The translations under genes and the position numbers were made by a program. From a virus: a stretch of 64,000 bases of DNA. Shown here piece by piece: positions 17,467 to 54,516 of the stretch. A model generated the notes under the pieces. It was not told the origin of the DNA. It searched no databases and saw only the letters and a program-made list of their open reading frames with translations. Each line of letters begins with the position of its first letter. The first letter of the stretch is position 1. The DNA is taken from positions 64,001-128,000 of IMG/VR virus record IMGVR_UViG_3300045125_000085, one strand, 5' to 3'.

Positions 17467-17597
17467 AGCACACCTCCTAAGGTATGGTAATAAGTCCATA
17501 CAGCTGAACGACCGTATAGACTGGAAAGGGTGAATGATCTAGCCACCAGTAGGCTAAGATCATCTTTAATATATGGGATTATGTTTTTCTGCACTTT
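17467..17597 (-). promoter_or_regulatory. Early-type promoter plus three-hairpin 5' leader (copy 1)
   Basis: GTGCAG-N10-TCCCATATATTAAAGATG, then hairpins ATGATCTTAGCC/GGCTAGATCAT, AGTCTATACGG/CTGTATGGACT and CATACC-TTAGGA-GGTGTG. Confidence 0.75.
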
Positions 17598-17977
17598 AAA
17601 CTAGAGCTTTAGCTAGTTTACTCCACATAAATGCCTTTACCGATATCGATAAACTGCAGCAACTCTCGCATCTGGTCATACGTAGCAGTCAGGTTAAATA
17701 GCGTCTCATCCATAGTCTCGTCTAGGACTAGTACGCGTATCCACATAGATCATCCATGCTGATGCGGTATAAGTCTTTACTATCAGGAAACCGAAATAGC
17801 TTAAAGCCATGATACTGCTTAGCGACACATTCTTTTAAACAACTACTTAAAGCCGCCATGATCGTCCACGGCAATGACCAGACTGCATACTGCGTACCAG
17901 TCTGTTTTACTTTAAACTCTACGCCATGACTGATCTATACGTAGAGTATGCTGACGGTGCTTAATAATCGTTTTCAT
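17597..17977 (-). CDS. Small hypothetical protein (frameshifted)
   Basis: ATG 17977 after GGAG; coding-like sequence between two regulatory elements. Confidence 0.35.
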
Positions 17978-18019
17978 AGGTAAAGGCTCCGGATGGTCTA
18001 TAAATAAAAAAGTGGCATA

Positions 18020-18048
18020 GCAGAGAGTGCTATCACAGCACTCTCTGC
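18020..18048 (-). terminator. Intrinsic terminator
   Basis: GCAGAGAGTGCT-atcac-AGCACTCTCTGC with a nearby A run. Confidence 0.75.
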
Positions 18049-18059
18049 ATCTCATTTTA

Positions 18060-18808
18060 AGGTGCTACTTCAGCACCGTGATCTCAACTCATCCTGATAA
18101 CGCATCCTAGCAGAGCTCGATCAGCTCTGCTCCTCATTATCCTGCAGACTGACAGCCTAGCTTAGGTTTAGGAAACTTTAAGCAATCAAGTATGCTCAGA
18201 TTCAGCCTATTCTTGAGGAACTCAAAACTAGGTAAGCGATCCTCACGTAATGCTTTCCTGATTTCATCAAAGCCTAGTATTAACCAAGGCCCGCAGTCTG
18301 GACGTATCCGTACGCCATCTTCACGCTTATAGATGTAGTAACATTCTAGCTTTGAGCTCACAGTCCTTAAGAGCCTCAGCCCATTGCGGATACTGCTGGA
18401 GCTTTTGCCAGTTTGCATCCATGATGATTTCTCTGAAGTTAAATACTTCAGCTCTAGTCAGCTTACGTTCAAAGTTACGTAAGCGTCTGCCCACTAGACA
18501 GACTCCTTATCTCATCACAGCGTTCTGCTGATAAGACGTATTTCCAAAAGGTCTCGATAGAGCAGAATCTACCTAAGACATTATGGACAAACGGAGCTTG
18601 TGTACGCTGATCCAGAAACTGGCCGAGATCAGTACTACCGCGGTTCCAAATATTCAAGTGATCGACGCCGTCTTCACCCAAGGTCATCGGTGACGGCATC
18701 GGTGTCCTTATAAGGGTTATGGCGTCGAGTACGACGCTGTCCAGACCCTCTAAAGTCTGCTATTTGCCCCAGACCCTTGAAGTCTGGAGTATAAAGTTCA
18801 TTTCGCAT
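18060..18808 (-). CDS. Conserved jumbo-phage hypothetical protein (frameshifted)
   Basis: GEDGVDHLNIWNRGSTDLGQFL...FVHNVLGRFCSIETFW resembles a motif I recall from large-phage hypothetical proteins; joins 18475..18699 and 18137..18418. Confidence 0.55.
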
Positions 18809-18810
18809 AA

Positions 18811-19385
18811 TTAAGCTCCAGGTAAGTCACACGATATCCCTTATGGCTCAGGCATTTCTTGCTGGTAAGTATATGCGTCAGAGAGGTGAAAGAACAGATA
18901 GATCATTACCAATACTAGCAACCAGTGATTTTGTTTCAGCAAGGCGTCGCAGTATTCGTACTCTACTCGTAATTGCTCCTGGATAGGCTGAGGTATCAAG
19001 CAGGTGTCGGTGTCCTTATTGTCCTCGGGTTCAAAATACAGCCCGCCGGGCTAATACGCCACGTAACTGTATCATCATGCCATTCCAATTAGGACAGATT
19101 GATCTGTACCTGCTTAGTGAGATTCAGCACAAAGTCTCTCAATATCTCATCTTGGAAGATCTGCTCAGTCGTCCTTAATAAACTATCCGGCATGAGCAGC
19201 TGGTATAGTCTATTACCGTAATACCACTGATAGAGAAAATCCATGACGTGTTCTTTATCATCTCTACCGCTAGGGAGTACACGCATGAGCTCTCTATCTA
19301 GTAACGCGATGATCAACTCACCGGCTTCAGCGAAACTAGGAGCCTGGGTAGTGACGCTATAGATGTAATTATTTTTCTCAGTCAT
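18811..19385 (-). CDS. Hypothetical protein (frameshifted)
   Basis: 98-aa ORF with GGAG RBS; continues after an indel. Confidence 0.5.
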
Positions 19386-19827
19386 GATGGTGCTCCCTCA
19401 TCGGTCGTATCAGTGGTGTCGGGTGTAGAGCATCTCTTCATCGCTCATGATGTCTAAAGCGACGACGATATCATGCTCCGTGATAGTCTTTGTTATGGTG
19501 GTGGAGTCGTATCACCAGCTCGAACTTAGGGATATTCAGAAAGCGCATCGCTTTAATAAATACCCGCCAAGTCTATAGTGCTCTTAAACAGTTCCTTCTT
19601 TAAATTCCCTCTAGCTCGTGACCTATCCTTGACATCGCCGATTCTGGCGTTGCGAGGATTCATCAGAAAAGACTCCATCAGCCTATGAAACTGATTTTCT
19701 TCTTATTCGCAGATCAAACAAGATCTTCTGGAATAAAGCTGCTAAGACACTATCGACACCGCCACTCTGAGGTACGGTACCGATTTGATGTGCCTTATCG
19801 CCGTAAGGTATGTTTATGAAATGACAT
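19382..19827 (-). CDS. Hypothetical protein (frameshifted, absent from ORF track)
   Basis: AGGAG RBS, ATG 19827; pieces SGGVDSVLA, FHRLMESFLMNPRNA, RARGNLKKELF, WRVFIKAMRFLNI. Confidence 0.5.
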
Positions 19828-19920
19828 ACTTAACTCCTAGGTCGAAGACTACTCTTAAGGTAGTCGGGTCGTGATATGTGCTCTTTAAATAAAGAGCACG
19901 GCCAGTGATAGGTCGTTATA

Positions 19921-20419
19921 TTAGACTGCTTCAAACAGCGCTAATAATGAGACCGTGTTGTTTAATAAGACATCGAGGACTTGCAGCGTATGGGCTTGAC
20001 GACTACCGACGACTGCTTCACAACTACGATACTGCACGATAAAGGCAGTAGCGGCAGTCTGCCATTCTTCTATAGCTCGGACAGGATCGATATACTGACC
20101 ATATGCATCTAAGAAGAACTCCCACAACGCTATAGATTGCAGAGAGTTATTATAGACATGCGGCATGAGTCCGATATCGTCACTGAGCGCCGTCGTCGCT
20201 ATTTCTAAATGGAACGTATATGCTTCTATAGTAGTGAATAATACACTTGCATCGCCAGAGCCTATACTCAGGATCATAGATCCGGCTGAAATGATCAGCA
20301 CGGATACTTTCTACACTGTACAGACCTTGATCGGTCAGGTGCGGTAAAGCGAGTAGTGGTGGAGTGGATTTACCCACCCACTGCAGACATCGCTTTAAGA
20401 GTCGATGAGCCATGCACAT
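19921..20419 (-). CDS. Hypothetical protein
   Basis: Overlapping 79-aa and 126-aa ORF pieces on the same strand. Confidence 0.45.
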
Positions 20420-20474
20420 GGCTATATCCTCAAGATTACTATATAAGTTTGATTTTTTTAGGAGCTGTCTTTTT

Positions 20475-20882
20475 ATGACTACTGATACACTCTACGCAGA
20501 CGATGATGCGCTCATCCTGCAGCACACCAAAAACATACGCTTTAAAGATCGTCGATCACTTTACTAGCGAAAATGGCTCATTGCCGCGTAATCAAGGTGA
20601 ATGGGCTGCACTGCATCCAAGCCCTAGATGGCTTAGATCGTACTGTGTTTACTAAAGCTAAACTCAAGTCAGACGAACAAAACCAACAACAACGCCAGCA
20701 AGTACTCGACGTAGTCTGCTGTAGCTCCAGCGTACGGAAGTACAGGCATCGTTGCCACCTGTCCGTACGCAGGATTTACCCGATCTACCTACTGACTATA
20801 CAGTAGTACCTGTACCGGGTGAGACCGATATCGGCTTACATGACTTAAACTACATGAGCAGTTCATGAGTGCTCAAGAATAA
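20475..20882 (+). CDS. Hypothetical protein (frameshifted)
   Basis: AGGAG RBS, ATG 20475; includes ALDGLDRTVFTKAKLK. Confidence 0.45.
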
Positions 20883-20903
20883 ATCTTAGCAGAGGTAGAC
20901 TCC

Positions 20904-21682
20904 TTAAGTGGAGTCTCCCTTAGGCGTAGACTCAGGCTGTGGAAAACCATCGGCTTTTTCCATGACCGCCATCGTCTCTTCAAACGCTATTGAGAAATAG
21001 CGCACGGGTAATAATGTCAGCTGAATTAGCGGTCCTGCTATTTGCTCCATCGCTTCAAACGGTGACATCTTTAAAGCCTGTGACTCAGCTACCGCCGTAT
21101 CACTAGGGCGGTCCATTAAAGTACAGAGCAGGACCCATCAAAGTCACTTCAGGGCAAGTCGTCTTTTTCCACTGACCATTTAAGCTGTGGTGTTCTAACC
21201 ACTCTGGATAACGGTACAGGACTAAGACGCTACATTCTTTTGACCCAAGCGGGATTCAGCTGATCGTAGTCATAGCGAACGATCTGTATATCACAGACTT
21301 GCTTGACCGCACTAGCGACTGCACGCACTATGATTTCTTGCTCAGTATCCGTCAGCTCGTACGGATACATATTGATCATGATCTTAGGCGTGTATTGATA
21401 AGGTCCTTGTACGCCTTGCTTTAAGGTCTCGTGTACAAACTCTTTACATAACCGTACCATCGGTGTCAGTACACTATTCTTTAAAGTCTGTCTATCCCTA
21501 GAGCGATAAACTTTCTCAAAGAGCTCTTGATTGACAGGAAACTCATCGGTCCAGCGATCTAAGTAACCTTTGCGTAAGACAGTCTCAGCGGTTTCTGAAT
21601 CTATCAGAAATAAAGTCGCTAAACGTGTATCGAGCAGACAATCTAGCTCGATGCATAGTAAAGAAGTAAAGGTGTCAGACAT
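20904..21682 (-). CDS. Conserved phiKZ-like hypothetical protein
   Basis: MSDTFTSLLCIELDCLLDTRLATL...; joins 21230..21715 and 20904..21116. Confidence 0.6.
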
Positions 21683-21720
21683 ATCAGCCTCATGGTAATG
21701 ACAGTGACCCCACACATCAC

Positions 21721-21754
21721 AGGCCCCTGAGCAGTATCGACTGCTCAGGGGCCT
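21721..21754. terminator. Strong hairpin downstream of vRNAP beta C subunit
   Basis: AGGCCCCTGAGCAGT-atcg-ACTGCTCAGGGGCCT. Confidence 0.75.
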
Positions 21755-21760
21755 TATGCG

Positions 21761-22447
21761 CTACAGGGTGTTAGAGAGATGCATTGCCTTTAAAAAGGTA
21801 CTGGACCGTCCGGGTGGATTCGACTCCTCCGGCATAATGACTTAAAAGTCTTCTAGGTTAGCGCTACCGTGCCGATTGATCATGGCATTGAGCGCACGTC
21901 GCCCTTTTCGTATCACCGCCTCTATACTTAAATAGCTCAGTGACCGATTTGTCCAGACCCATAGCCGTCATTACTTGTAGCTCTGGGAAAGAGATCTTAG
22001 CACCACGTCTGGCTTCACCTGTGGGTTGGCCTGAGAGTATGTCTGAAGTCTTATCGGACTCTTGTACTGATAACTTCTTGACTAGCATCTGAGAGGCACG
22101 TCGTAACGGCATGTCGATCACCATGTACTTGACAGGTGTCAGATGGGTAGGGATGCCATCATGCTCACCTATCCATAGCCTCTGAAAGAAATCATGACCT
22201 AACTTTTTAGCGACTGCTATATTCCTCTCTAAAGTCGGTGAAGCTCCGAAGTTAGGCATCGTTAAAGTCAGGCACTTTTACCAGTCGCTAGATCATCGAT
22301 GAACTGTTTAAACTCAGCTTCACTGATTTTATCAAAGTAAGCTTTATACAACTCAGTCGTAGGTCCTTTCGGTACCATAGCTTCTAAGCATTGCAGGATA
22401 AACTGTTCAGTCTTTTGTCTAGCAGGAGATTTAGCTATGGTGCTCAT
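21761..22447 (-). CDS. Virion RNA polymerase beta C-terminal subunit (phiKZ gp149-like)
   Basis: MPLRRASQMLVKK...SGQPTG..RGAKISFPELQVM..GL...ELFKYRGGD corresponds to the beta C-terminal (GQP..GG.R.GEME) region; ATG 22447, TAG 21763-21761. Confidence 0.8.
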
Positions 22448-22809
22448 GGCCTAAAGCCTTCGGTAAACGATGCAAAGCAGCGAATGGCAGTACCGTATCG
22501 CCTACTAACTTTTGCCAGTCATTGATTTCACCTTGGTAGATCAAGCAATAACGCTCATTGATAGATACAGCAGGACACGCCATCAGTTGCAGGTTCCAAA
22601 ACTGATTCAGCATATGCCAGCTGCACCCGACTGTTCTTATCTCTGGCCTCGATGATGTAATGGCTAGTATCGTAGTTATTGACGACCTCGTCAGCTAGAC
22701 CTGCCTCTAGCAATCGGTCTCGCATCCAGCTCACCAGATCGACCTCCTCAGGGGTACGTGGAGCATGGTAGTCCTGTACTCCTTGAATATACTGCGCATT
22801 AGAAAGCAT
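22444..22809 (-). CDS. Hypothetical protein
   Basis: Two overlapping ORF pieces between the recA-like gene and the RNAP subunit. Confidence 0.5.
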
Positions 22810-22852
22810 AAAGCTAAATCCTCACACTTAAAGAAACATAGAAAGAGCACGC

Positions 22853-24290
22853 CTAGCGCGCTCTCGGTAATTTATCATCGCCAGCCCAGTACGGTGAGTA
22901 CAGGCCCTTACGCATACGGAGTAAATCCATAGTGCTTAAAAATGGCACAGGGTGCTGATCATTATTGACAGTCCACCAGCCTCTAGTACTCAAGAGTACG
23001 TCCCAGTCCCAGCCGAGCTTAATCAAATCCTCAAATAATTGCTGAGGTGTGCACAGTATGTCTTCATCTTTTAAGTAGCGCCAGTAGTGATGCATCTGAG
23101 CCAGCTCTGCCGTGATATTCATGGCACGCCTTAATTTAGCATCTTGATTAAGCTTACTGCGGACACTCGGACGTGAGAGCTTGAGTGACGGATAGAGATC
23201 CAAACTATAATTGGAGTTACTGCCACTGATACCCGAAGCGATCGCACTGATCTTTCAGGTAATGAAACTCACTCAAGCTAGGTAATACGCCTTCAGTCTG
23301 ACTAACGATGAGGTTAAGTACAAAGCCCGTCATACCGGATTTACCACGCAGCTGCCGTAAGCTGACTTGATTTAAATCTAAGTCACCCGGCATCTGGTCG
23401 TCAGCAGTCGAGAGGATACTCAGGGCCTTTAGTGCTTTGATTCAGTAAAGGTGAGGCATTATACGCATGCCAGCAATTACTCATCAAAAAGAAAAACTGA
23501 TCAGTGACGCCTTTGATCTTATCACCATTCTTTAAATGCTGTAACTTCTTAACTGGTGCTTGTGGGATAGGACCGGTAGCGATATTCAGGTCTTTACCCA
23601 TATGAGCTGTCAGCAGCACATAATGCTGCGCTCTCGCAGCGTGTAGCAGGGATCTCCATCATGAACCTAGTCTTAGCTAAGCCTTGACGCATGTGGATCA
23701 CATTGCCACCACTATCACCTAACAGATTATCTTCTTGGATCTTAGCGATATTCTCAGTTTCAAACAAAGTAAAACTGTCAATGCTAGTATAGGTAGGTAC
23801 GAGTATTTCAAACAGCTTACCATTCTTAGCAAGAAACGGAGTAGGGACTGTGAGCTTCTTAGCGTTATCGCGCTTATCCCTAAGAAATTGTTTTAAGATC
23901 TCGTACCAAGGATCAGCATAGTATTGCGTCTTATCGCTCAGTAGCCAGGTACCTTCTTCGACTATGTCTTTATCTTTAAAGCTCTCGAACTTCTGTGAGA
24001 TACGCAGCCATGCGTGACGGCTGACGATTTAACTCTGTATCGTACGTCGTCCCTGAGGTCTCAGTGCTACAGGCGATCCTATCCATAGCTGATAGCATCA
24101 TGTAATCCATCACAGTAGATTTGAAGTTATTGCCGATACCGACGACTCCCGTCAGTAAGCTGAGTCCGCCATTGATGATGCTTTCACCGTGGATACCGAG
24201 GACACTGTGGCCGGTCGGGATATCGAGTCCTGCGCCGACATTGATCATGACTTTGTATTCAGGGGCGGGATCGAATTTTGGTCGTAACAT
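22853..24290 (-). CDS. uvsX: RecA/UvsX-family recombinase (phiKZ gp152-like), frameshifted
   Basis: INVGAGLDIPTG, Walker A GIGNNFKST, YDTE, Walker B-like IDSFT, LLTAH, LRGKSG; pieces 23976, 23401, 22853. Confidence 0.8.
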
Positions 24291-24435
24291 AAATATGCTC
24301 CGTCGAGTGAGTATGGGGGTCACACTATCAGTCTCCACCCAGACTATTTTATATGTGTATGCCTGAGGCGGCGTTTAATGCTATGATTACTCTGGCCGCT
24401 TAGGTCATCGTCTTTACACGGCACACGAGGTCCGT

Positions 24436-25448
24436 ATGAAACCTACTTTATTTTCGGCCGATTCGGTGTCGGTGTCGCTGGAAACCCAGATGGCACAGCT
24501 CGCCTTAGAGGCACAGTTTATGCAGAATGTGACGGATCTGTTCCGGAACATAGTCCCGTCTTTTAAAGCTAGATTGCAGCAGCTGCATCAGCAGCTCACT
24601 GGTTTTACTCAGAAAGATGCAGCGCAAGATCTCATAGCTAACTATGACAATAAGATGGCTTATGCCCATCGCTTCGATAAACGTACTCAGACGGCTTTAG
24701 ATAATGCCAAGCACTTAGATCTACTGATCTTTGGCGAACACATCATCACTATCCCTGAGAACTTCAAAGGCAGCCTGCCCGTATACACGACTACCTCTGA
24801 GACAGACTGTTAGAGACTGGCTTACGGCATCAGTCTTTACTCGATACTTTCAATCAGCAACTCTCAGCTTTCATTAACAACCCAGAGCAACGCAGCTCCG
24901 TCACTGGTAATGTGAGCTTCGCTGAATCGAGTAATCAAAGCGCCGTCTTAAAGGAATACCGTGAGCAGTCTACTAAGACTTTAAAGACTTTCTTCGGTAA
25001 GGATACTGGCATCTCTAAAGCACCTTTGAAAAATGTCCTAGAGCGTTTCGCTGATTTAGAAGCACTCATCGTGCAGATGCAGATGATGGCTCACTTCTTA
25101 GATGTGAAAATACTCCACAGCTATCAAGAAAAGATCCAGCAGATGATCCAGCTACTCGACATCATCATGGATCAGTACCGTAAAGGTACGGTCACTACTG
25201 TCTCGCCTAAAGTCGCTATGACTCTTTCGCAAAATGTCTACGATGTCGCTCAGTATGTAGAGTTCGTAGCACTACTCCAGTATGACGGTAGAGTCTGCTT
25301 AAACGTCGTCGATAGGATCATAGAAGGTCTAGCTAAACCCGATGAATGGAAAGCAGCTAATCCACGACAAGGCTTTGATGAACCTAAGCAATCTAAATGG
25401 TTCGTAGGCTTACAGAATCTCTGGCAGTACGTCCACCAGGGCGCATGA
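24436..25448 (+). CDS. Probable internal head protein with prohead-protease sites (gp153-like)
   Basis: N-terminal SVSLE and LALE fit the S/A/G-X-E cleavage motif of phiKZ head proteins; divergent from the recA-like gene; two ORF pieces. Confidence 0.6.
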
Positions 25449-25472
25449 TCGTATACTTAGTCGGCATAAAGA

Positions 25473-25512
25473 CACTGTGAGTCTACTCTAGCTTTTGAGC
25501 AGACTCACAGTG
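25473..25512. terminator. Hairpin between convergent genes
   Basis: CACTGTGAGTCT...AGACTCACAGTG. Confidence 0.7.
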
Positions 25513-25536
25513 TGATAGGGGCATGTATGCTATCGT

Positions 25537-25976: not shown

Positions 25977-26114
25977 GACTGAGACCTCAGGTAGAAGAAA
26001 GACAGCGATATCGCATAAAGGCTGTAACAGCGACGATACCGGCGTAGGATGAAAGACTGTAGGAGTCCTTTTTTGCTAAGAAAGTATCCGCATAGTCATA
26101 AGACACTACAGTCT

Positions 26115-30705: not shown

Positions 30706-31700
30706 CTAACAAAATCAGTGGAGTTGCTTAGATCTAGCGATCGTTAGAGCATTCCATCTTCTCTAAGCAGCTTGAGGTAATAGCAGACCGAACTAGGTGA
30801 TAAGTTCATCTGCTTAAGCTATCTCAGGCGGTGAAACCGCGCTGGTACAGAGAGTACACCTGCTGACGCTTACTTTGAAAGTAAGCAGTCGGATTATCTA
30901 CGATGCCATCCAGCTCATCCCAACCAGCAGTAATGTCAATAGGGGCAGTCTCTATGTCACCCTACCTTTATAGCCAAGGATGATACGATCACCTATCTGA
31001 CGGCTATACTCAGCACGCTTCTGATGTGCTTCGAATACTCTGTAGAGATCTCTTCGCGCAGGTTTTCGGTCTAGGGTGAAGATGACGTCTTCACCTTTCT
31101 GCACAATTATCGTACCATCAGGCCAGTTGACGATGTAATGACCGTCACCGCATTCTCAAACGACCGGCTCATTAGAGATAATATCAGCATCGAGATCGAG
31201 CCTTAGTCCAGCTTTTCCTGAAGGACTTGCTTGAGCTTAGGGCACTATGTCGGTGATCTCTAAGCGTGTATCGTCATCGGCTATCCAAACTTTGCCATGC
31301 TAACAGTAGATGCATTACTGCTCTAACTGACAAAATACCTCCTGAGATGAATAGGCGAAATAGACTCGACATAGCTGAGTACTTTATGGACTTCCTTGTA
31401 GCTCAGCATGAAGCGTCCACCATTCGGTGGCAGGATGTCTATACCTATAGGCTTTACAATAAGTAAGCCATTGTTTTCTTCCATCATAGGCGCAGAGATC
31501 TTTTTGTTGAATAGTTCTTGCTGTTTGCTATGGTTCATCAGCCTTTCCTTCTTAAGATAATAAGTGATAGTAGGCCCAGTGACGCCGAGCCTCTTGGCGA
31601 TCTCAGTCATGCTGTATCCAGAGTTATAAAGCTGGACTATGACTTTGCTGCGAGATTCAGCATAGTTGTTAGCATCAAACTTATTGGTATTGTGGCTCAT
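30706..31700 (-). CDS. HTH-containing early protein (N-terminal HTH, probably a second C-terminal HTH), frameshifted
   Basis: QLYNSGYSMTEIAKRLGVTGPTITYYLK; near 30760-30860 SPPEIA.QMNLSPSSVCYYLK; preceded by an early-type promoter. Confidence 0.6.
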
Positions 31701-31730: not shown

Positions 31731-31785
31731 TGAGTAGTACGGTATACTCAGTGTAAGTATATATCGCTCTATTCACTTTGAATCT
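31731..31785 (-). promoter_or_regulatory. Early-type promoter with 5'-terminal hairpin
   Basis: TATATACTTACACTG overlapping hairpin TGAGTA-TACCGTAC-TACTCA, 17/20 identical to 61966-61985. Confidence 0.6.
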
Positions 31786-31817
31786 ATACTGCTGTTAGAC
31801 TCAAGCAGCTGTTGACC

Positions 31818-43787: not shown

Positions 43788-45370
43788 TGCCTGATTTATA
43801 CACCGTGCGTTTAATTAAACGCCTAGTAAAGGGAGTGAGCGGAGTCTCTACCCTTGACACATCTTCGACACCATTATATCGTCTACGACAGATAAAGCGA
43901 CTTTTAAATCTTTGATCGAAGATAAAAAAGGGATGTTGCTTTTAGCTAAGACAGCTAATCAGGCTGTCTTTACAGCGATTACTAAGTCGGCTACGGCTAT
44001 GGGTTATATTGCCAATAGTCCATCTGCTTTAGATTTTTTTACTAATAATACTACCCTTAATAATTTACTTTATGACGGCGTAGGTAGTGTGGGCATAGTC
44101 GCTAATTACAATATAACTAAATATGGAAGAGTAGGCGATAATGCTACGTTAAAGGCACTACCTACCTTTAATGACGTGGTAAATAATTCGCCAGTAATGG
44201 CAGCTATTACAGCTAGTACTACTGGGATGATCGCTATATCGAACAGCTCGATTGCTCTGAATAAGTTTCTATCATCATCTACGTCTGATTTGCTTTATAG
44301 TGCCGCTAGTAATGTAGGCAGCATTTTGAATAAATCGTTAATAAATAACGGCGGTGTAGGAAATAGCACTTTGGCCGGTTTAGCTACTTTTCAAGACGTG
44401 GTAAATAACGCGACTGCTTTTTCTGCTTTAATAAATGACAAAACTACTATTTCGACAATATTAGGAAGCACTGCAGCTATAAATAAAATAACGAGTTATC
44501 CAAATTGGATGAATAGTGCTGCAATGCTACTAGTAACGCTGGTTATATGCTGAATGTAATTAATGTGGCTAACGGTGGAGTTAGAGACGATATGTTAGCT
44601 GCTAAAGCTACTGCTGCCTTAGTTGTTAATGATTTAACCACATTCACTGCTATATCTGCTACAAAGGCAATAACTACGATAGTATATTAAATTCGTCTAC
44701 TTTAATGAATGTTCTTGAAGAAAATAAAAGCATTCTAAAAACTGTAATATGGAATAGTGAAAGTTTGCTAACAGACACTAAAAAATAACACAACAGCTAA
44801 AAATTCATTAGCCAGTTCTTCATTAGTTGTTACTATATCTAATATAGTTAAAAGCAAGACGCAGTCTGTATCTGTAAAAACTGGTTTTTCTATTTTACTA
44901 CAGATGTCTCAATCAGTCAATACCGTCGATGTTGAGCTACTGTTAAATTCTCACGGCTATTCAAGTTGGTATGTCAGAGGTACTATTATTATCGGCCTAG
45001 CTGAACAGTAGTTACGGTCTAGCCGTAATAACCTGGGCTGGATGATGGATATCTATGGGTGGGGCGTCACAAAATTATACGATGAAAATAGATTTACTAG
45101 AAAGTAAATATAGTCCAGTTTTTCAAGTGCACGATGTAGAATATAAAGATAAATCTATAACTAACAGTGATCCCATTTATTTAATAGGGAGAAGTATAAG
45201 ATGGTATTGATATAGGTATTAATACAGTAGTAATGTGTAAATATGTTTCTAATATACCGGCAGCTACCGACTGTTATCAATCTTACTATGGTTTGAAAGT
45301 AGACGCAGCTGGTTATAATTGGAGTAGTAATGGCGTACTTACATTTAAGCTTTTAAATCTTGTCTAATAG
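43788..45370 (+). CDS. AT-rich repeat protein, probable tail fibre/receptor-binding component (frameshifted)
   Basis: AGGAG RBS, ATG 43788; ~70-aa repeats G..L....T F.DVVNN...AI; visibly lower GC than flanks. Confidence 0.55.
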
Positions 45371-45835
45371 GTGACATTCATGCAAACATACACTCACGTT
45401 GTAGTATTGTCTGATGATAAAATCATTGGTTTTTCTACAGTAGCTGCTTCAGAATATTCTGATCGTAACCATGTTGCGTTGGATAAAGCAATAACACCTT
45501 TTATCGACGATCATCTTCATTATCAATATAAGAATGGTGAGGTAGTTTATTCACCAAATAGTGATATTAATGACTCACTAGACATCTACTCTTACGCGGC
45601 AGTGGAGACTGGAGTGGAGACTGGTGATAGTTTGATATCTGGATTAGTTAGGCGTTCAGATAGCGCAGAGTTTTTCGACACACCGGTAACAATAGTGCCG
45701 CTGACTACTACTATCAATACTAATTACGACGATATAACTAATTTTGTCTATGTCGATGGCGTGGTTAAGTATGATGTAGAGGCAGCAAGATTAGCACTTC
45801 AAGCTAAGTTAGCTCAAGAAGATCAAGCGATATAA
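45371..45835 (+). CDS. Probable tail fibre assembly/chaperone-like protein
   Basis: 154-aa acidic ORF with duplicated Y.Y.(N/D)G.V.Y motif at the end of the fibre cluster. Confidence 0.5.
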   Translation: MTFMQTYTHVVVLSDDKIIGFSTVAASEYSDRNHVALDKAITPFIDDHLHYQYKNGEVVYSPNSDINDSLDIYSYAAVETGVETGDSLISGLVRRSDSAEFFDTPVTIVPLTTTINTNYDDITNFVYVDGVVKYDVEAARLALQAKLAQEDQAI

Positions 45836-45837
45836 GT

Positions 45838-45892
45838 ATAGCCTATACGGCATAAGGGGGGGTTTTAGCCCCCCTTATGCCGTATAGGCTAT
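45838..45892. terminator. Perfect 24-bp inverted repeat between convergent operons
   Basis: ATAGCCTATACGGCATAAGGGGGG-gttttag-CCCCCCTTATGCCGTATAGGCTAT. Confidence 0.85.
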
Positions 45893-45900
45893 TTATCTCA

Positions 45901-46445
45901 TTAGCTAGTGACGATCAATTTAGCTAATTCCACTACATCTCCCACCATATCACCTACTAGTCCTTCAGGCAACTCCACACCCATCACTATCATCACTAGT
46001 ATAGCCGCGATCATTAAAGTCCCAGTCACTACTGCATATTTAAAAAACCAAGCACGTAAATGAATCAATGCTAATCGGTTTTTCACCTCTACATGCACTA
46101 ATGTAGGACAGTCCATATCCTTACAATCCCGCATATCGCATACGTCTTTACCACACTGCTCCTTAGGATCTACGTAGATAGGAAAGTGTTTACGCCCTCC
46201 ACCAGCTCAGCTTAGCCTTTACCTTCATACAGTTCAGACTCTACTGCATCTAATGCTAGCAGTATCAGCCGTGTCCGCACAGGTGCAGGTAGCTCACCAA
46301 ACATATCCAGTATCTTCCAAAACTCACTATCGTGCGCATTGATCAAATCACTAAAGCTACTGATGATATCGGTATTCTTAATATGCAATAGCTTCTTTAC
46401 TTCTTTATGATACTCTTTAAGAGCATCTTCTTCTCTGACTGCCAT
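45901..46445 (-). CDS. Membrane protein with C-terminal TM segment (two ORF pieces, probably one gene)
   Basis: 46212..46445 plus 45901..46134; YAVVTGTLMIAAILVMIVMG. Confidence 0.5.
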
Positions 46446-46473
46446 TTTAGCTACCTCGCTCTTGTTAAAATGC

Positions 46474-47060
46474 TCACGTCACTACTAGTCTCCTTAATTT
46501 AAGTAGATGTGTATAAGCGACTGCGATACTATCCACACCGTGCTCATCATACCCGCTCAGTACCTCTGCATCTAGCACGCTCATTAGCTCACTCACACTC
46601 CCCACTGCAGTCTTGACCGCTACTTTATTACCATGCGCTGTAGCCCCCACCAATTTCTTCACTATAGCGGGTTCATAGGTGATGAACTTCACATTAGCGT
46701 CATACGCTTTCACTGCTAATCGCATCGCATACACACATTCGACTAAAGCTGCATAAGCACTCGGCCTGAACCGATTTGTAAAACGGAGACTCGCAGCAGA
46801 CTATCCAGGGCTGATAGACTTCTAATAAATGCAGTACGGCATCGTGCTGATAGCCTATCCGCCCCCATCTATCTAGCTCCTCCCTACATCTACCACGCCT
46901 GTATGCGCAGGTGCTTTGATCGTCCTAGCCTCCACACTTACCACACTGTAATCCTCCCACCGTATCGTCAGCATACATATCCCTAAGTGCTGTGAGCCAG
47001 GGTCTATCCCACAGATCACTCCTGTCTCTACTCCACCCTCTGGCTCGACGCAGTGCCATA
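46474..47060 (-). CDS. ruvC: RuvC-like Holliday junction resolvase (frameshifted; N-terminus fused to the upstream ORF in the track)
   Basis: ICGIDPGSQHLG, IVCESPF, YEPAIVKKLVGATAHGNK..V, DEHGVDSIAVA. Confidence 0.82.
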
Positions 47061-47074
47061 GCTCTACTCCTTTA

Positions 47075-47919
47075 TACACTCGTGACGAGGTAAAAGGCTC
47101 GACTGCCCCTATGTCCATGATCATGTCGATACCAGTGCTATTAAACTGCGTAGTATAAAAGTCCTGGATAAAGTGCGTCACCTGCACAGCTACTGCATCG
47201 GTATAATTGACCACCGTACCGTTAAAGTTACCGGGTACTGCTCTGTCGATACCGCTACAGACGGCTGGTTCACTGATGATCATACCGGCATTAGGGTCGT
47301 CATACAAGATAGCTGCTACATTAGTCGGTTCTTGCATATCGGGTTCAGTCATAGTGAAACGTACCTGAGCTGTCACTGATAGATAATCACCGGTAGTGCT
47401 CAGTACTCCAGTACTACTCAAAGCAGGAGCTGTAGGATTTAAATCCGCTACTGTCGGTGCGAACGGCATACTCGTCACTGCCCCACTACGTTCCGTCATA
47501 TAGGTCATTTGCGGTACGGTCTCATCCAGCTTAAGCATCTTCAGATAGTAAGCGATATAGGTCACACCGTGATGCGTCTCTAGTACTCTTAACCTATAGT
47601 TAATACGCTCGGCAGCCGTCAGGTCATTCTCAGGTGTACGCAGTATGAAAGGTACCTGGTGATATAAAGCAGCATGTCGTGGTAAGTGCGGTACTGCTAC
47701 GATCTGCGTGATACCGTCAGCGCCGACCTGCGCTTTATGACCGCCATTACCTATACCCATGTAGCTGACTTTAGGGGTCTCAGCTACACCTAAGATCACA
47801 CCGCGGTTGACATTATACTTTTCGTTTAAAGTGCTGTTCTCAGCTAATGCGACCGGCATGTTGAGAAACTGACACGATTGCAAATAAGCACCGTAGATAG
47901 TACGGACATTGTTCTTCAT
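47075..47919 (-). CDS. Virion structural protein
   Basis: VRTIYGAYLQ..NSTLNEK..YMGIGNGGH..ALYHQVPFILR..YIAYYLK, a pattern I associate with phiKZ-like baseplate/tail proteins. Confidence 0.65.
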
Positions 47920-47939
47920 AGCGTTTTACTCTGCTTTAA

Positions 47940-50096
47940 ATGGTAGAAGGATGACGGAGCCAAAAGTTTATTTGCTCTTTAGGTACCTGACTATTACGCA
48001 TATCGTCCAGATTCAAATGTAGATCGTAGGTAATAGCAGTACGTGTTGACGATTGATCGAGTACATAGCTTTGATAGTCTGCTCATTACTTAGCTGGACT
48101 TTAGCTAGCTTACGATTACGACTCAACGTCAGTGGTGGTAACTCATGCTTTAGACGTACGACTGCACTATTAAGACTACTGATAGTCAAAGGGTGAGTGC
48201 CATACTTTAATCCTAGCATGCTATCGATGTGCGTACTGATATCGCCTACACGTAAACTAGCCCATTCGAGCTAGGCGTACTGGTTTTTCATTGACCTGAG
48301 CGATCGTTTGGATGCTGTAGCTGAGTCAGTTGACTCATGACGGCTAGCATAGCACTGCTGGATATTAGCAGCTGATTTAGTCAGGATCGAAGCGATAGCC
48401 CGTACCTGCTGTAAACACAGTCTGAATTAATAGCTGTAGTTCAGTACTAGTATAGGTACTCTCAGGTAAATGCTGCGAGCGTAGCCATTCCTGATAGTCC
48501 ATGCCGAGTCTCAGGTAACTCTATTAAAGGATCGCAATGTAATTGCTCAAAGATCCTCGCATAGAAAGCTCGTAGCTGCTGATCCTCTATCCGTGATACA
48601 GTATACCAATACTGCTGCTCTAGCCCAAATGCCGCTACGCCCCATTGATAGAACGCAGTCTTAGCATATAAAGCTCCGTAGTCTAGGCACAGTACGCAGT
48701 ATAGTCCGTACTACATCCACATGTAATCGCTTACTATCTATGCCACTCATGACTTCCTCTAAGCTAGGACACGGCCATCTAAAGACATGGTTTAGCCTGT
48801 AGCTTAGGGATAGTGAGGCATAGGTGTGCCGTACTGCTGATAGGTCAGATAGACTAGATAGATGTACGCAGCCCGACTACTCAGACTACGCTGTTCGCCA
48901 GTGATAGGATCTCTAAAGTTGACGATCACCGGATAGCGGTCCTGGCTGATAAAATACAGCCAATGGTTTAATAACACATCAGTCAGCTTATACGGTACAG
49001 CATCAGTATAGTCTATCAGTGATGACTCTAAGTCTTTAGTCTGCACTACACCTGAGATAGACGTCTTAAATGCTAGATCTATCTCACTATATTCTTCTAC
49101 ACTGACGACGGCATTAGCGGGTGCTAGTTTAGCTTCACGCTTCAATATCTCCGCTAAAGTAAACGTATCTTTCCTAGGCATGTTATACATGCCATTGATA
49201 GAACGTTTCCTAAAATGGTAGTCAGGATATAAGCTTTGATCAAAAACAGTGAGCTGGTTCATGGTATAGTCGGCTATCGGAATATAGCGACGCGACAATA
49301 AATGCTCGATCAATTCTAGTAAAGTCGTCTGCTGACCTACATTATGCTTTAAGCTATCGACATTACGATACAGATACAGAGCTTGCTCTAGCGTATAGTA
49401 ATCCCAGTACTTATCTAAACGACCTCTACACGCTAAAAACTGTTTGATATGAAAGCTATGGGCTTCAGCTGTCTTACAGCGTTTTAGCCATAGATTCATG
49501 ATCGTAGGTACGAGCTGTGAGACCATACTCGCCCACTGACTCGCTGCGTACAGCGTATCTGAATGGATGAAAGCGCGTACATGCCACCTAGCAAAAATAG
49601 CGCTGGATCCATCCCTCTAGCTCGTGTACTAATGTCGCTTCTTGTGGCTCTATTAGCTCACTCGGATAGCTCAAAATAGCGCCATTCTTCGCATTGACGG
49701 CATAATGTAAATCGGCGGGGTACAGGATGCCCAGGATCAGATTTTCTTGATCTGGATATGCCTGCACCAACGCCTGGTAATATCAGAACTGCCGTACTGA
49801 TATGCGATAGCTGTAGCCGTATGACTACTCAGATTCTCCTTAGTAAAGCCTATGGTCTCTAGCGTATCTAAGCTAGTCACCACCATAGCACTATCGAGCG
49901 AATGGTATTCACCAGCTAGGTTTAAGTAATACTTCCAGCTGTAAGGATTATTGTTATCGACATAGCTAGCGCCATACTGCTCCATGATGCCGGTATTCAT
50001 TAAGGTCGCGGCATCTTCAGACTTAATGATTAAAGTCTTGGCTAAGAGTAGCGTCATATCTAAATAGATACGGTACTCGTCTAATGGGGTGGCCAT
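47940..50096 (-). CDS. Large virion structural (baseplate-like) protein, frameshifted
   Basis: WKYYLNLAGEYH..VTSLDT, LILGILYP, AEAHSFHIKQFL; pieces 49737, 49588, 48804, 48013; divergent from the portal. Confidence 0.65.
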
Positions 50097-50146
50097 ACTC
50101 AGTTTACCCTTGTTTCTACTATACTTTAAATAGGATACATTGCACC

Positions 50147-52912
50147 ATGAAAAAACCTAATGATACCCCGCACAGCAATCAGCGCGGGTCTACTGTACGT
50201 CAGCTCATAGATCTCGTCAATAGCCGTAAGTCATATCCCGCTTTACGAGTCATAGGCGATGCCCCTGAGATGGCAGCACTCGTATCGAAACTAGTCCGCA
50301 CCCCGCTCCAGCATCGGACTAGTCCTGAACTAGGTCCGACGGGGCGGGGGTTGACACAGACCCGTATGCAGCAGATTTCTCAAGGCGTCAAAGAGCGCAT
50401 TGGGGATGCAGAAAACATGATGCAACTGTTTCCGGATTTGGAACTTTCGGCCCAAATCCTGGTCAGCTCAGTGCTTTCTCCAAAGGATATGGTGAACTAC
50501 GACCTTATTTTCTCGAACCAAGATGCTCGATTTCCAGCTGAATTAAGTATGAAAATGCTAGATGCTATCAAGGAAGATTTGGATAAGGAATACGACCTCA
50601 AAGCTCAGCTTCCACTTATTTTAAGACAAGTCTTATTCGAGACTGGTAGCTATGTCAGAGCCGTCATCCCTGAGTCTGCAGTCGATGATCTTATCAATAG
50701 AGGTAAGCTCGTCGGTATGGAACATCTATCAGAACTCTTCGATAAGCAAGAACAACCTAAGTCACTCGGTATCCTCGGTAGACCTAAGATCGCTACAGCT
50801 AAGACGGCGCCGCGTACTGCATTAGAGTCCTTTAAGTTTCAGCGTATCCCTTACCAGACGTACGATGCTACTAATGTAGCAGTAGAGTCACCGCAGTCTA
50901 GCTACTTACCTGAAGTCACTGATAACTTCACTGCTACTGAAGCTACCGCGTATCCAGCAGGCTAATAACCGTGCTAAGATCCGTGGTGTCATCAATGGCC
51001 TTAAGCAATCTGCCTTTAGACCTGCTACTGAAGCTACTGCTAATAAAGGTAGTAAGACAGTACTCAATCATCAAGAGCTAGAAGCATTAGTCTATAAAGG
51101 TCATGCGACTAAAGCCGTACCTTTCGTCTCTATCCCTAATGCTACTCAGACGAGTCGTAAATCCGTAGGTAAGCCACTCGTCATGAAGCTCCCTTCTGAA
51201 TCTATCATACCGGTACACGTACCAGGTGATGAGCGTGATCATATCGGCTACTTCGTACTCATAGATGAGGACGGCAATCCAGTCACCCGTCATAGTCAAG
51301 CTGCTTATACTGATACACTCAACACCCAGCTGAGTAATCCGAGTCACTCCATGACCAGCTTCCTCTTAGAGAAAGCTAGGCATAACCTCAGTAATGACTT
51401 TAGGAATAACCTCACTCTCGATCAAGCCGCTAAGATCTATACCGATCTCGTCGAAAACGATCTAATCGAGCGACTCCGTAACGGTATCTATGGTAGTAAC
51501 TTCGCACTCGCACGTACTAATGAAGTCTATCGCGTCATGCTAGCTCGTACTTTCATGAACCAATATACGCGACTCGTCTATATCCCAGCTGAACTCGTCA
51601 CGTATTTTGCTCATGATTACCATGCGAACGGTATCGGTAAGTCATTACTCGATGATCTGAATATGCTCATCAGTCTCAGAGGTATCTTACTCTTCGCCCA
51701 AGTCATGGCTTTGACTAAATCAGCCATAGCTCTGACTCATGTCAATATGACATTAGATCCTAATGACGCTGATCCACAAAAGACGATCGAGATGGCGGTA
51801 CATGACATCATTAGATGCGTCAGCAGTACTTCCATTAGGTGTCAATACGCCTATCGATCTAGTCGATTGGGTGCAACGTGCAGGCTTTGAGTTTACCTTT
51901 GAAGGCCATCCGGGTTTACCACAAACCAAGTTTGACTTTGAGACTAAGAACCTCCAGCATACTGTACCAGATACAGACTTTATGGAGCAGCTACGTAAGC
52001 AGACCATCATGGCACATAGCCTGTCACCAGAAGTCGTAGACTCAGGATTTAGTGCTGAGTTCGCTACGACTGTCGTAGCGAATAACATCCTGCTATCTAA
52101 GCGCGTCCTGCAGATCCAGGAGAAGTTTACCCCACAGCTGACGGATTTCGCCCGTAAGCTGCTCCAGCATGATGAGGAATCTACGTAGTAAGCTCCTAGC
52201 GATCATAGACGAGCATAAAGGACTACTCGGTGCCCATATACCGGATGATGAGAAAACACGCCTTACAGAGCATCCTGGAGGCGTATTTCTCGTCGAACTC
52301 CTTAACGGCTTTATTGAATCCCTAGCGATAGACCTACCACGTCCCGATATCACTACGCTAGAGAACCAATCACAAGCCTTCCAACACTACTCAGAAAGCT
52401 TAGATGCCGCACTAGAAGCTTGGATCAATAGTGACATTTTAAACGATGTGACTTCAGGTGAACTAGGCAGTCATACCGACATGCTCAAAGCTACGTATAA
52501 GTCATACTTCTTACGTAAGTGGATGGCTGAGAACGGCTATATGACTGAGCTGACTGATATAGTAATGGCTGATGAGGATGGCAACGCCATGATCGACTTA
52601 GCAGCTATTATGAAAGACCATATCGAAGGACTGACTCGCTCAGGTGTAGAGTATATCGCTGCTTTGAAACCAATGATAGATGCAGCTAATATGGACTTAA
52701 ATAACCTGAACGTAGAGGAAGGTAGCTCTAGTCCTAGTGATAGTGGTAGCAGTGATGATAGCGGCGGTGGTGATGATGGTGGCTTTGATTTCGGCGGAGG
52801 GGACGACATGGGGGGTGATGAAGCAGGTGGTGAAGAGGCTGGTGGCGATACTGGCGGAGAAGAAAAGGGTGCAGGCGATGATGGTGGTTTAAGGTTTTTA
52901 AGCTACGCTTAA
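50147..52912 (+). CDS. Probable portal protein (phiKZ gp129-like), frameshifted
   Basis: ~920 aa when joined; MMQLFPDLELSAQILVSSVLSPKDM, KLPSESIIPVHVPG..HIGYFVLIDEDG, GIGKSLLD, LSPEVVD; acidic Gly-rich C-tail as in T4 gp20-type portals; cluster of A-X-E protease motifs. Confidence 0.7.
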
Positions 52913-52957
52913 GTGTTAAGCTACGCTTAAGTGTTAAGCAATAAAAGGTACTAAGTA

Positions 52958-53086
52958 ATGAAAGACAATGATAAATGGCATGGCTTAAATAGTGGACTCT
53001 TCGCTATCACCTTTGGCTTTGGCGTCATGCTGATGGCCGATGCTCTCTGGAGTTTGTTTAAAATGGTCTATGAGCATGTGAAGTAA
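52958..53086 (+). CDS. 42-aa single-TM small protein (below ORF-track cutoff)
   Basis: AAGGT RBS-like; MKDNDKWHGLNSGLFAITFGFGVMLMADALWSLFKMVYEHVK*; stop just before a terminator. Confidence 0.5.
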   Translation: MKDNDKWHGLNSGLFAITFGFGVMLMADALWSLFKMVYEHVK

Positions 53087-53097
53087 AAAAAAGAGTG

Positions 53098-53142
53098 AGC
53101 ATATAGCCCAGAAGAGCCATAGTGCTCTCTGGGCTATATGTC
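53098..53142. repeat. Terminator hairpin, left copy of ~45-bp direct repeat
   Basis: AGCATATAGCCCAGA-agagcca-TAGTGCTCTCTGGGCTATATGTC. Confidence 0.9.
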
Positions 53143-53147
53143 GATCT

Positions 53148-53481
53148 TTACCAGTAGCTCTCTGAGCTGGCTGGTATCGACATGGCTTCAATGCGGGCGT
53201 CCTCCAGTCCTTTATAGACGCATAATACACCTTCCCAGTTGATTCTTTTGAAAGGGCTTCGAAAGACGATGTTGCCATCGTCTCTGACTTCTATGACAGC
53301 CTCACCATCCTCGCGTTTCTCCACGATGACTTCTACGCCATCCTTGGCATAGACGACGCGAGTAGGAATTACAGCATTGCCAGACGCCAGCCGAGCTAAC
53401 TCAACGATGGTAGTTTTGGGAACAGCCATAATGTTCCAGTCGTCCAAAAAGAGATCAGTGGTCAATGTCACTTTTGCTCAT
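53148..53481 (-). CDS. Hypothetical accessory (early) protein
   Basis: GGAGGTG RBS, ATG 53481; joins the 107-aa ORF after one indel. Confidence 0.6.
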
Positions 53482-53608
53482 GATACACCTCCAAAGATGT
53501 TACATTACTCTAACAACCGAGCAGATTGTTAGAGCAGAAAGGAGGTTTATGATCTCAGCAGTAGGCTAAGATCATTCTAAGTATATGGGACTGTAAAAAC
53601 TGCACTAT
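53482..53608 (-). promoter_or_regulatory. Early-type promoter plus three-hairpin 5' leader (copy 2)
   Basis: GTGCAG-N9-TCCCATATACTTAGAATG; hairpins ATGATCTTAGC/GCTGAGATCAT, CTCTAACAA-TCTGCTCGG-TTGTTAGAG and ACATC-TTTGGA-GGTGT. Confidence 0.78.
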
Positions 53609-53614
53609 AAAGAA

Positions 53615-53668
53615 AGCAAAAAAGAAGAGTGGTATAGAGGAGCCCGTAGGCCCCTCAGTGCTACTCTT
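53615..53668 (-). terminator. Terminator of accessory gene; core 21/22 identical to 16967-16988
   Basis: TAGAGGAGCCCGTAGGCCCCTC at 53635-53656 with an adjacent A run. Confidence 0.7.
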
Positions 53669-53729
53669 TCCTATCAAAAGAAAGCGATGCTCCTAGCGTC
53701 GCTTTCACTGAGCCTCCGGCCTTCTTTCT

Positions 53730-54397
53730 ATTAAGCTCCTTCTTACTTCATTCTTCCTTGAAGTGATTTCGCCTTCCGTGGCGTTATATGCGGTTAGCTC
53801 ATCCATGATCTTCCACATCCTTAAATAACTCTACACCCAAGGCGTAGAGCTCTGGATCACCTTCCTTGGTGATCAGCACTTCCCATGCACCACCCGTCCA
53901 ACCTCCTTGGTCGGACGAACTGTAGAGTGGCGCCATTCCTTTCAATGGCGCCACCGTATTCATACGACGCTTCCACGTCGTAACGAAGTCTGCCAAACTT
54001 CCTTGTTTTTGGTCCACAGAGAATTCCTTTTCTTTTCAGCGATCCTTGCTTCTTCTTCGCTCATCCTTGCGAATATTTTCATCCTTCATCCTGAACGCTT
54101 GCTCCTCGTCCTTGAAGGGTTTTAACGCTTCCTTGCATAATTCCCTGAAATCCTTTTCAAGAATATCCTTGGCCTCCCTGGCCTTTTTCTTCTCCATGAA
54201 TTCCTTTTCCTCTTGCTCCCTCATCGGGAGCGTTACTAAAAGACATCCCTTTCTATTTCACGTCCTTGTTTAAGTGAATAAACCACCCCTTCCATAGGGG
54301 TTTTTCCTCTGTCAAGGACATACATGGTTTCCCATGTATGTCCGGCCACCCAAGCCTTCTTCCGAGAAAGAAAGCTAAAAGACTTCTGAATGCTCAT
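53730..54397 (-). CDS. Hypothetical charged accessory (early) protein, frameshifted
   Basis: AGGAGGTG RBS, ATG 54397 (MSIQKSFSFLSRKKAWVAGHTW...); joins 54036.. and 53799.. Confidence 0.55.
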
Positions 54398-54516
54398 AAT
54401 ACACCTCCTTGGGTGTTGGCTCTAAGCCCGAGCAGACCTAGAGTATTGATGGATAGCCTGCTTATGCAGGCTTTGGTTCATGCTTACTATGTGGGATTAT
54501 AGCTTTTTGCATTTCA
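54398..54516 (-). promoter_or_regulatory. Early-type promoter plus three-hairpin 5' leader (copy 3)
   Basis: ATGCA-N11-TCCCACATAGTAAGCATG; hairpins AGCCTGC/GCAGGCT, CTCTAGG-TCTGCTCGGG-CTTAGAG and ACACC-CAAGGA-GGTGT. Confidence 0.72.

Follow-up and report, generated by a model that had tools for sequence, protein, structure and literature searches.

A stem at the very 5′ end, leaving no single-stranded end, stabilizes bacterial and phage mRNAs such as those with the ompA leader. Here, we describe a family of 5′ leaders in an uncultured phage whose first hairpin would occupy the same position, with the difference that its 5′ arm is an almost invariant tag overlapping the initiator region of the promoter. 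Three members lie on the minus strand of a 64,000-base window (bases 64001-128000 of the single 144,006-base virus record IMGVR_UViG_3300045125_000085). They had been noticed in a preliminary description as a promoter followed by three hairpins, the third covering the Shine-Dalgarno (SD) sequence, ahead of unrelated open reading frames (ORFs). Since a β-type subunit of a multisubunit RNA polymerase is encoded in the window (best match, 45% to Ralstonia phage RP12) and a phiKZ-type major capsid protein gene is also present, the contig is a fragment of an uncultured phiKZ-like jumbo phage; a phage collection search found no close relative of the record. We favor, at a probability of roughly 55%, the reading that the leader acts in cis to stabilize transcripts from the early-type promoters of the phage and to gate their translation, and that it has spread as a cassette.

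The early promoters read by the virion RNA polymerase (vRNAP) of phiKZ-like phages share several features with the promoters described here: strong conservation of an AT-rich element some 10 bases ahead of the start, another element (or a T-rich one) around −20 to −30, (G/A)TG where transcription would begin, dissimilarity to sigma-70 promoters, and repetition ahead of one-strand operons of small unknown genes (PMC7058600, PMC7598289, PMC8244752, PMC11512511). However, the promoter sequence in our contig is lineage-specific, and its conservation extends over about 95 transcribed bases as a folded leader, whereas phiKZ 5′ untranslated regions are reported to be mostly 31 to 40 nt and the papers cited here describe no shared leader. 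The PeSL cassettes of T4-type phages (PMC2839356) are similar in being repeats of about 100 bp with an early promoter, a stem-loop, an SD sequence, and a start codon, placed ahead of orphan genes in variable regions, with signs of shuffling that include empty cassettes and other cargo at the same site in relatives. Their promoters are sigma-70-like, whereas ours is phage-specific, and the PeSL stem-loop, positioned within or beside the promoter, ends transcription arriving from upstream. In comparison, the three hairpins here are predicted to be transcribed; they covary, one of them may pair with the start codon, and part of the module recurs inside operons.

The closest mechanistic precedent, although not a homologous one, is the Escherichia coli rpsO operator bound by S15, in which separate hairpins or a pseudoknot with loop-start pairing control access of the ribosome (PMC3985624). 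The two have no sequence or Rfam relationship, and rpsO is one autoregulated gene with S15 as its ligand, whereas the leader described here stands on a class of unrelated phage genes. RegB/RegA control of T4 early mRNAs is similar in having a phage-wide signal at early ribosome sites (GGAG plus an upstream S1-binding region) that would let one factor act on a whole class (PMC1702504, PMC3014915); the T4 targets are short linear motifs rather than a three-hairpin leader. Sites of CsrA/RsmA proteins (PMC7652899) likewise expose a GGA in a small hairpin overlapping the SD, but the phage leaders are without ACA and have another loop register, longer stems, and usually a single GGA.

Family size, fold, and start-codon pairing

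Ten copies were used to build a covariance model, which after one round of refinement found 14 copies at an E of <0.01 in the 144-kb contig (E values of 1e-8 to 1e-21), all on the minus strand, and a pattern scan added a 15th; the three copies first reported had therefore understated the family. The word ATGATCTTA, over-represented in the genome, also traced to further leader copies outside the window. Searching the window alone with the model filters off returned the three copies described before, here called C, D, and E (copies 1, 2, and 3 of the preliminary description, with AUGs at 17466, 53481, and 54397 on the minus strand), plus a degenerate copy at 54598-54697. A full copy comprises a promoter, a 5′-end hairpin (hairpin 1), a pyrimidine tract resembling an anti-SD sequence, hairpin 2, and a weak hairpin that holds the SD (hairpin 3); 11 copies have this layout. 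Copies M, O, and P (all outside the window) consist of hairpins 2 and 3 only and sit between the first and later cistrons of operons, with neither promoter nor hairpin 1, a placement that speaks for action of the hairpin 2-3 module at the RNA level, where translation starts, and against its being a promoter component.

No Rfam family matched the leaders at gathering or permissive thresholds (E up to 10), in keeping with the earlier impression that the family was undescribed. Exact and gapped leader DNA patterns searched in IMG/VR, JGI metagenomes, and species genomes gave chance matches only (coding sequence or unrelated bacterial loci), none of them confirmed by the model. The covariance model found no leader in a complete 257-kb relative (G001; RNA polymerase identity, 49%), in a 50-kb syntenic relative (G002), or around the capsid gene of a relative with 86% capsid identity. 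A close relative in which a neighboring gene is 90% identical (L144) retains the copy C leader (62 bits), the only leader found in another genome. The check for further copies genome-wide and in relatives that had been proposed with the first three thus returned at least 14 to 15 on the contig and this one in a close relative.

Minimum-free-energy folds of the window copies give the three hairpins that had been drawn for each, with energies well below those of shuffled controls (z = −4.3 to −5.8). Also confirmed were a 17-nt identity in hairpin 1 of copies C and D (17547-17563 and 53559-53575), a common hairpin 2 loop, UCUGCUCGG(G), on differing stems in copies D and E, and an anti-SD ACCUCC upstream in copy D. 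Hairpin 3 can be drawn as first proposed, as a 5- to 6-bp stem with a hexaloop (UUAGGA, UUUGGA, or CAAGGA) closing on GGUGU, but the computed fold in copies C and D has a stem one to two pairs longer and a tetraloop.

On the model-fitted alignment from which pair counts were taken, 84% of cells were paired and two-sided changes occurred at 15 of 22 pairs. These pairing values were reached in none of 500 shuffles, and sliding the partners cut pairing to 31 to 43%. Hairpin 2 had compensatory changes at 9/9 pairs, with 94% of cells paired, under a constant loop (G-Y-U-C-R). In hairpin 1 the 5′ arm is nearly fixed while the 3′ arm and register vary, and hairpin 3 varies almost solely on its 5′ arm because the 3′ arm is the SD region. 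Since G·U pairs outnumber A·C pairs in the helices by 38 to 7, it is the sense-strand RNA that folds, not the DNA or an antisense transcript. Covariation thus supports the fold and, with a phage-type promoter upstream and unrelated small genes downstream, the original claim of a structured, recurrent 5′ leader family.

The unrelated cargo genes behind these leaders start with AUGAGC(A) or AUGAAC(A), which is odd for unrelated proteins. The hairpin 2 loop (G-Y-U-C) is complementary to the start region (U-G-A-R-C), as in UGCUC/GAGCA and GUUCA/UGAAC, and in copy H a CACA loop faces the UGUG of AUGUGC. At least five contiguous complementary bases are present in 10 of 14 copies, always over ORF positions +2 to +7, and the summed loop-start match is 66, versus 45 ± 3 with shuffled loops. 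For 11 of 15 copies, the loop-start duplex is predicted to have an energy of −5 to −10 kcal/mol. A four-pair loop-start helix is 94.6% paired, versus 0 to 39% when slid, and has compensatory changes from C-G to U-A in three copies and from U-A to A-U in one. The L144 leader combines a copy D-type stem with a copy C-type loop and has AUGAAC, as predicted. Loop-start pairing would explain why codon 2 is common to unrelated genes, and its geometry would be that of an ordinary H-type pseudoknot, with hairpin 3 inside the long connecting loop. A hairpin loop pairing with the start-codon region, as in rpsO, is thus found here computationally (complementarity plus two covarying pairs). The pyrimidine tract between hairpins 1 and 2 (CACCCUUUCC, ACCUCCUUUC) is also able to pair with the SD and does so in the computed fold of copy D. 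The structural switching suggested earlier is plausible in these models, in which three closures of the ribosome site (hairpin 3, the anti-SD-like tract, and loop-start pairing) would compete.

Promoters and the predicted 5′ end

The promoter layout first reported for the three window sites, TGCA-N10/11-TCCCAYATA-N6-ATG, was found at 17561-17593, 53573-53604, and 54479-54511, all on the minus strand; these three matches in the window compare with 0 in 100 dinucleotide-preserving shuffles. No sigma-70-type site was found at any of the three on the minus strand. The upstream regions align as one promoter class with an invariant A-ATA-T core (CAYATA), a spacer of 4 to 6 bases, and ATGA(T/G)C, and the core CAYATA(C/G)TA is present in 11 of 11 aligned copies. 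TGCA...TCCCAYATA is one sub-class, and another carries TGGATTGAAAAG upstream. A promoter profile recovered 26 sites, 26/26 on the minus strand, and the general form CATATA(C/G)TAA-NN-ATGAGC occurs among them ahead of genes without a three-hairpin leader.

In such phages, the motif that can be found by sequence alone is the vRNAP early promoter, about 10 nt long, AT-rich, and centered near −10 (PMC7598289). Our contig has a conserved AT-rich element that is visible in this way and is repeated upstream of presumed early operons. Judged by eye and without statistics, ACATATTAC-TT-ATG and CCCATATAC-N5-ATG resemble TATATTAC of phiKZ, ...CCTACATTATY of EL, and ...TATATTAC-N4-GTG of 201phi2-1, and there is likeness by eye to the published OBP/N1M2 early consensus as well. 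By the published −10 rule, RNA would start at approximately the G/A of ATGA(T/G)C, the first base of hairpin 1. A hairpin starts within the first five bases at 19 of 23 sites of the promoter class, versus 38% of random 36-mers, and in two relatives the promoter is retained together with a 5′ hairpin and a tag much like the one here (ATGAGC-CTAGC...). Conservation of the first ~12 bases of the predicted transcript (ATGAKC-YTAGCC) extends to all promoter sub-classes and to relatives, including cases in which the remaining leader sequence is different. None of the three leader hairpins has a U-tract, and all are located 3′ of the predicted start; separate terminator-like hairpins precede the promoters.

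We considered ATGAGC at the promoter start regions as a leaderless start codon and rejected it, as most sites reach a stop within 3 to 12 codons. A sequence family is likewise seen among the terminators, with AGAGCACYC-N4-GGTGCTC and then a T-run (outside the window: L001 5120-5200 and 6225-6260; L003 about 11760-11850). Its members immediately precede the next promoter, an arrangement also reported for phiKZ and 201phi2-1.

Window copies, cargo genes, and state of the record

Copy C (minus strand, like the other leader copies, their cargo, and the promoters below) has its promoter at 17564-17610, where a T-rich stretch and TGCA are followed by TCCCATATA, 6 bases ahead of the ATGATC initiator region. 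The whole covariance-model match, 17461-17563 (74.5 bits), contains hairpin 1 (17536-17561), the pyrimidine tract (17523-17532), hairpin 2 (17494-17521), hairpin 3 with the SD (17469-17486), and AUGAAC (17461-17466). As read here, the cargo is 37 codons from the leader AUG (17353-17466). Its L144 orthologue has 81 codons and the same N terminus, MN(S/T)F..F.R. Since the remainder of that protein matches an overlapping 138-codon frame here (ORF 17057-17473), the copy C cargo is frameshifted in this assembly.

The copy D promoter (53576-53622) reads TGCA-N10-TCCCATATA. Its leader (53476-53575; 92.1 bits) consists of hairpin 1 (53551-53573), the anti-SD-like ACCUCCUUUC (53537-53546), hairpin 2 (53508-53534; loop UCUGCUCGG), hairpin 3 with the SD (53485-53500), and AUGAGCA (53475-53481). 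In the cargo region (53148-53481), the leader AUG opens only 8 codons (53455-53481), and the real gene (53148-53471) is out of frame. From its first residue onward, this following ORF of 107 codons shares 69% identity with the intercistronic copy O cargo, and the frames would join with one A fewer in an A-run.

Copy E follows a promoter at 54482-54528 (TGCA-N11-TCCCACATA) and has a leader at 54392-54481 (52.6 bits) with a divergent hairpin 1 (54455-54472), hairpin 2 (54420-54443; loop UCUGCUCGGG), hairpin 3 with the SD (54401-54416), and AUGAGCA (54391-54397). Its cargo (54236-54397) has 53 codons and belongs to no known family, and two further small ORFs precede the copy D promoter. The three genes described at the outset as unrelated ORFs are indeed unrelated small genes behind the leader, but not all are intact, and the AUG at 54397 is the only one followed by a small ORF that seems complete. 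A short way downstream of leader E, a Lys/Glu-rich 62-codon ORF coincides with a weak, sub-threshold CsrB/RsmB-like match at 54016-54203 (minus strand; 24.3 bits versus a gathering score of 71; E of 2e-4 in a 1.3-kb search), probably a composition effect of this purine- and GGA-rich stretch.

The degenerate copy at 54598-54697 (25.7 bits; E of about 1e-3) lies between the preceding gene and the copy E promoter and has a 12-bp hairpin followed by GAGGUGUACU-AUGUGC, with a stop after 5 codons. It is a cargo-less remnant of the hairpin 2-3 module and may be a scar of cassette recombination. Including it, empty or broken cassettes have 5 codons (54598-54697), 7 codons (copy A), and 8 codons (copies D and P). 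Promoters of the same class also stand at 59689-59726 (CCCATATACTAATA-ATG, with a short leader that is not of the three-hairpin form) and at 61986-62020 (GCATATATTACTT-ATGAGC), where the transcript would begin with a 7-bp 5′-terminal hairpin. A weak member at 31753-31788 is upstream of a small helix-turn-helix gene (31323-31700).

Pfam and PHROGs gave no name for any window cargo gene, and a cluster look-up of eight cargo proteins at 90% identity found no member beyond the contig. The cargo genes are small orphans, with the exception of one, located outside the window, that encodes an STIV_B116-like/DUF1874 protein. Copies L and I have cargo (also outside the window: L003 1554-2048 and L005 about 8780-9007, both minus strand) that looks paralogous, with an HExxH-type motif (AHESGH/LHEIGH), and would represent small putative metallopeptidases behind the leader.

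Compared with its relatives, the record is broken in frame at many places. Given the many short ORFs, we asked whether another genetic code might apply and dismissed the idea, since the standard code fits and comparison with relatives shows the breaks to be frame shifts. The capsid gene (genome 138166-140062) is read as 461 plus 183 codons, versus 725 in relatives, a split that could alternatively reflect an intron. The first 1.5 kb of the contig (genome 1-1576) is fragmentary where G002 has a 566-codon ORF. At 15958-17473 of the window, a 411-codon gene of a relative (the gene after the copy C cargo) is split, as is the 81-codon gene. Either assembly indel errors or real decay of the genome may account for the breaks. 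The leader family and its covariation are unaffected by them, while statements on ORFs need care.

At 306-641 of the window (minus strand), Rfam identifies a group I intron (RF00028; 59.8 bits, above threshold) directly after the RNA polymerase β-type ORF (648-2126, minus strand), whose protein is longer and uninterrupted in relatives (537 amino acids versus 492 here). One close homologue of this polymerase subunit (78% identity) belongs to a metagenome-assembled genome that carries the name Methylococcaceae bacterium, which may be a hint of the host or a binning accident. The stretch from 44001 to 46000 has a low GC fraction (0.36 versus about 0.46 elsewhere) and few long ORFs.

Proposed action of the leader and competing explanations

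According to the cis-acting reading, the vRNAP would read the promoter through the AT-rich CAYATA-type element about 10 bases upstream and the initiator region ATGA(T/G)C-YTAGCC. The RNA would start at or beside the first base of hairpin 1, leaving no free 5′ end and so gaining protection from 5′-end-dependent decay. Next would come a single-stranded pyrimidine tract resembling the anti-SD end of 16S rRNA; the hairpin 2 loop would then pair with the U and G of the start codon plus codon 2 to form a pseudoknot, and hairpin 3 would hide half of the SD. Combined, these elements would keep the ribosome site closed or switchable and thereby limit or time translation of the whole gene class, with gating through ribosome standby and unfolding or through a putative factor, from phage or host, that recognizes the conserved loop. 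Promoter, leader, AUG, and codon 2 would move among loci as one cassette by recombination, and we propose that this spread is why unrelated cargo genes share it.

Several observations weigh against this reading. All copies but one come from a single contig, where paralogues share ancestry and are not independent, and the alignment behind the pair counts was itself fitted to the structure. Loop-start complementarity is nearly absent from copies O and Q and limited to 4 bases in copies H, M, and P, and the C-G to U-A change may represent one or two events only. Hairpin 3 is weak (−4 to −8 kcal/mol), and the frame breaks make single-base details uncertain. The term "early" draws on resemblance to promoters of other jumbo phages, and the start site is a prediction; both "early" and "accessory," as first applied to these genes, are reasonable inferences rather than established facts. 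Finally, G002 has about 70% DNA identity over genome positions 1-44.8 kb and keeps the syntenic promoters and 5′ hairpins, yet it is without the hairpin 2/3 module; its conserved promoters are followed by different leaders, most of them shorter, and in some places by different cargo. Because the module is absent at these conserved syntenic promoters, it is dispensable or recent, and from the genomes compared, the three-hairpin form appears to be a recent expansion within one lineage.

A more ambitious idea, which we regard as tentative and rather unlikely, is that the leader is a class-wide address label. The 5′ tag and the loop-start pseudoknot would be recognized by a dedicated factor, made by the phage or by the host and modified by the phage, that permits or blocks translation of every early anti-host gene together; if the phage forms a nucleus, the label might instead sort the first messages.

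It is similarly unlikely that the element is mainly a recombination cassette of the PeSL kind for swapping small genes together with their expression signals, with the hairpins as generic stabilizers or insulators. The properties on record for PeSL (PMC2839356) agree with the empty or broken cassettes (5, 7, 8, and 8 codons), with the other leaders and other cargo at conserved promoters in G002, with the chimeric L144 leader, and with cargo genes that are singletons at 90% identity. What points to recombination between copies are signs only, namely the empty cassettes, the cargo differences in G002, and that chimera. Plain homogenization would not yield 9/9 compensatory pairs under a fixed loop, and it leaves unexplained both the change of the loop together with codon 2 and the promoter-less copies exactly at internal start sites. 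Shuffling is compatible with cis action of the leader, which it does not exclude, and the cis-acting, shuffling-cassette, and phage-repressor or nuclease readings are not mutually exclusive.

The last of these holds that the hairpin 2 loop, the GGAG of hairpin 3, or both are the target of a phage protein, a translational repressor or endoribonuclease that would shut the early class off in the manner of RegA or RegB; we consider it doubtful. The loop sequence is conserved on varying stems, and GGAG stands at the loop/stem junction in nearly all copies. T4 RegB cuts within GGAG of early mRNAs with the aid of S1 (PMC1702504), and the upstream pyrimidine tract of our leaders could bind S1. However, conservation of the loop is already accounted for by start-codon pairing, cleavage and binding are putative here, and no candidate protein or RegA/RegB homologue came up, none having been searched for.

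The preliminary description had pointed to CsrA/RsmA-type recognition of GGA loops over the SD and had named a host or phage RNA-binding protein as one way of gating translation. That host CsrA/RsmA occupies the hairpin 3 loop, with translation repressed or timed as a result, is made very unlikely by the comparison with known sites. A GGA does lie in the loop of a short hairpin over the SD in the three window copies, and copy E reads CAAGGAGGU, near the core of the SELEX consensus. That consensus, RUACARGGAUGU, has an invariant ACA and a hexaloop ARGGAU closed by AC/GU on stems of ≤4 bp (PMC7652899). The 15 leaders examined have no CsrA-type ACA, and a weaker A-N-GGA at the SD occurs in only 2 copies; their GGA occupies loop positions 4 to 6 rather than 3 to 5, on stems of 5 to 7 bp. 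The GGA is moreover the first three bases of the GGAGG SD itself, and it occurs once in 8/15 leaders, not at all in 2/15, and more often in 5/15, whereas the usual CsrA pattern is at least two sites 10 to 63 nt apart. The least probable account is that of a DNA-level element (such as hairpins near the promoter that serve the phage polymerase, or a signal for replication or packaging) with an incidental RNA fold, which would fit the conserved first ~12 bases as a DNA initiator element but conflicts with helices that form well only in sense-strand RNA (38 G·U versus 7 A·C) and with hairpin 2-3 modules that lie far from any promoter and always just ahead of an SD and AUG.

The loop-start-codon pairing, the intercistronic copies, the comparison with CsrA sites, and the caution over frame breaks are new relative to the preliminary description. 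The pairing of the loop with codon 2 is a sharp prediction that compensatory mutants could test cheaply. Because the leader marks insertion points of new small genes, one of them DUF1874/STIV_B116-like, it may be a tool for finding early anti-host genes in metagenomic phage contigs, and it could serve as a compact expression part in phage engineering. The address-label idea, if true, would turn it into a translational operator acting across the whole virus, a type for which jumbo phages have no described example. For jumbo phages with their own RNA polymerase, early promoters are known, but the fate of the first messages after transcription is almost unexplored. A covarying leader that ties the start codon and codon 2 of unrelated genes into an RNA structure would offer a mutable handle on the stability, timing, and selective translation of these messages.

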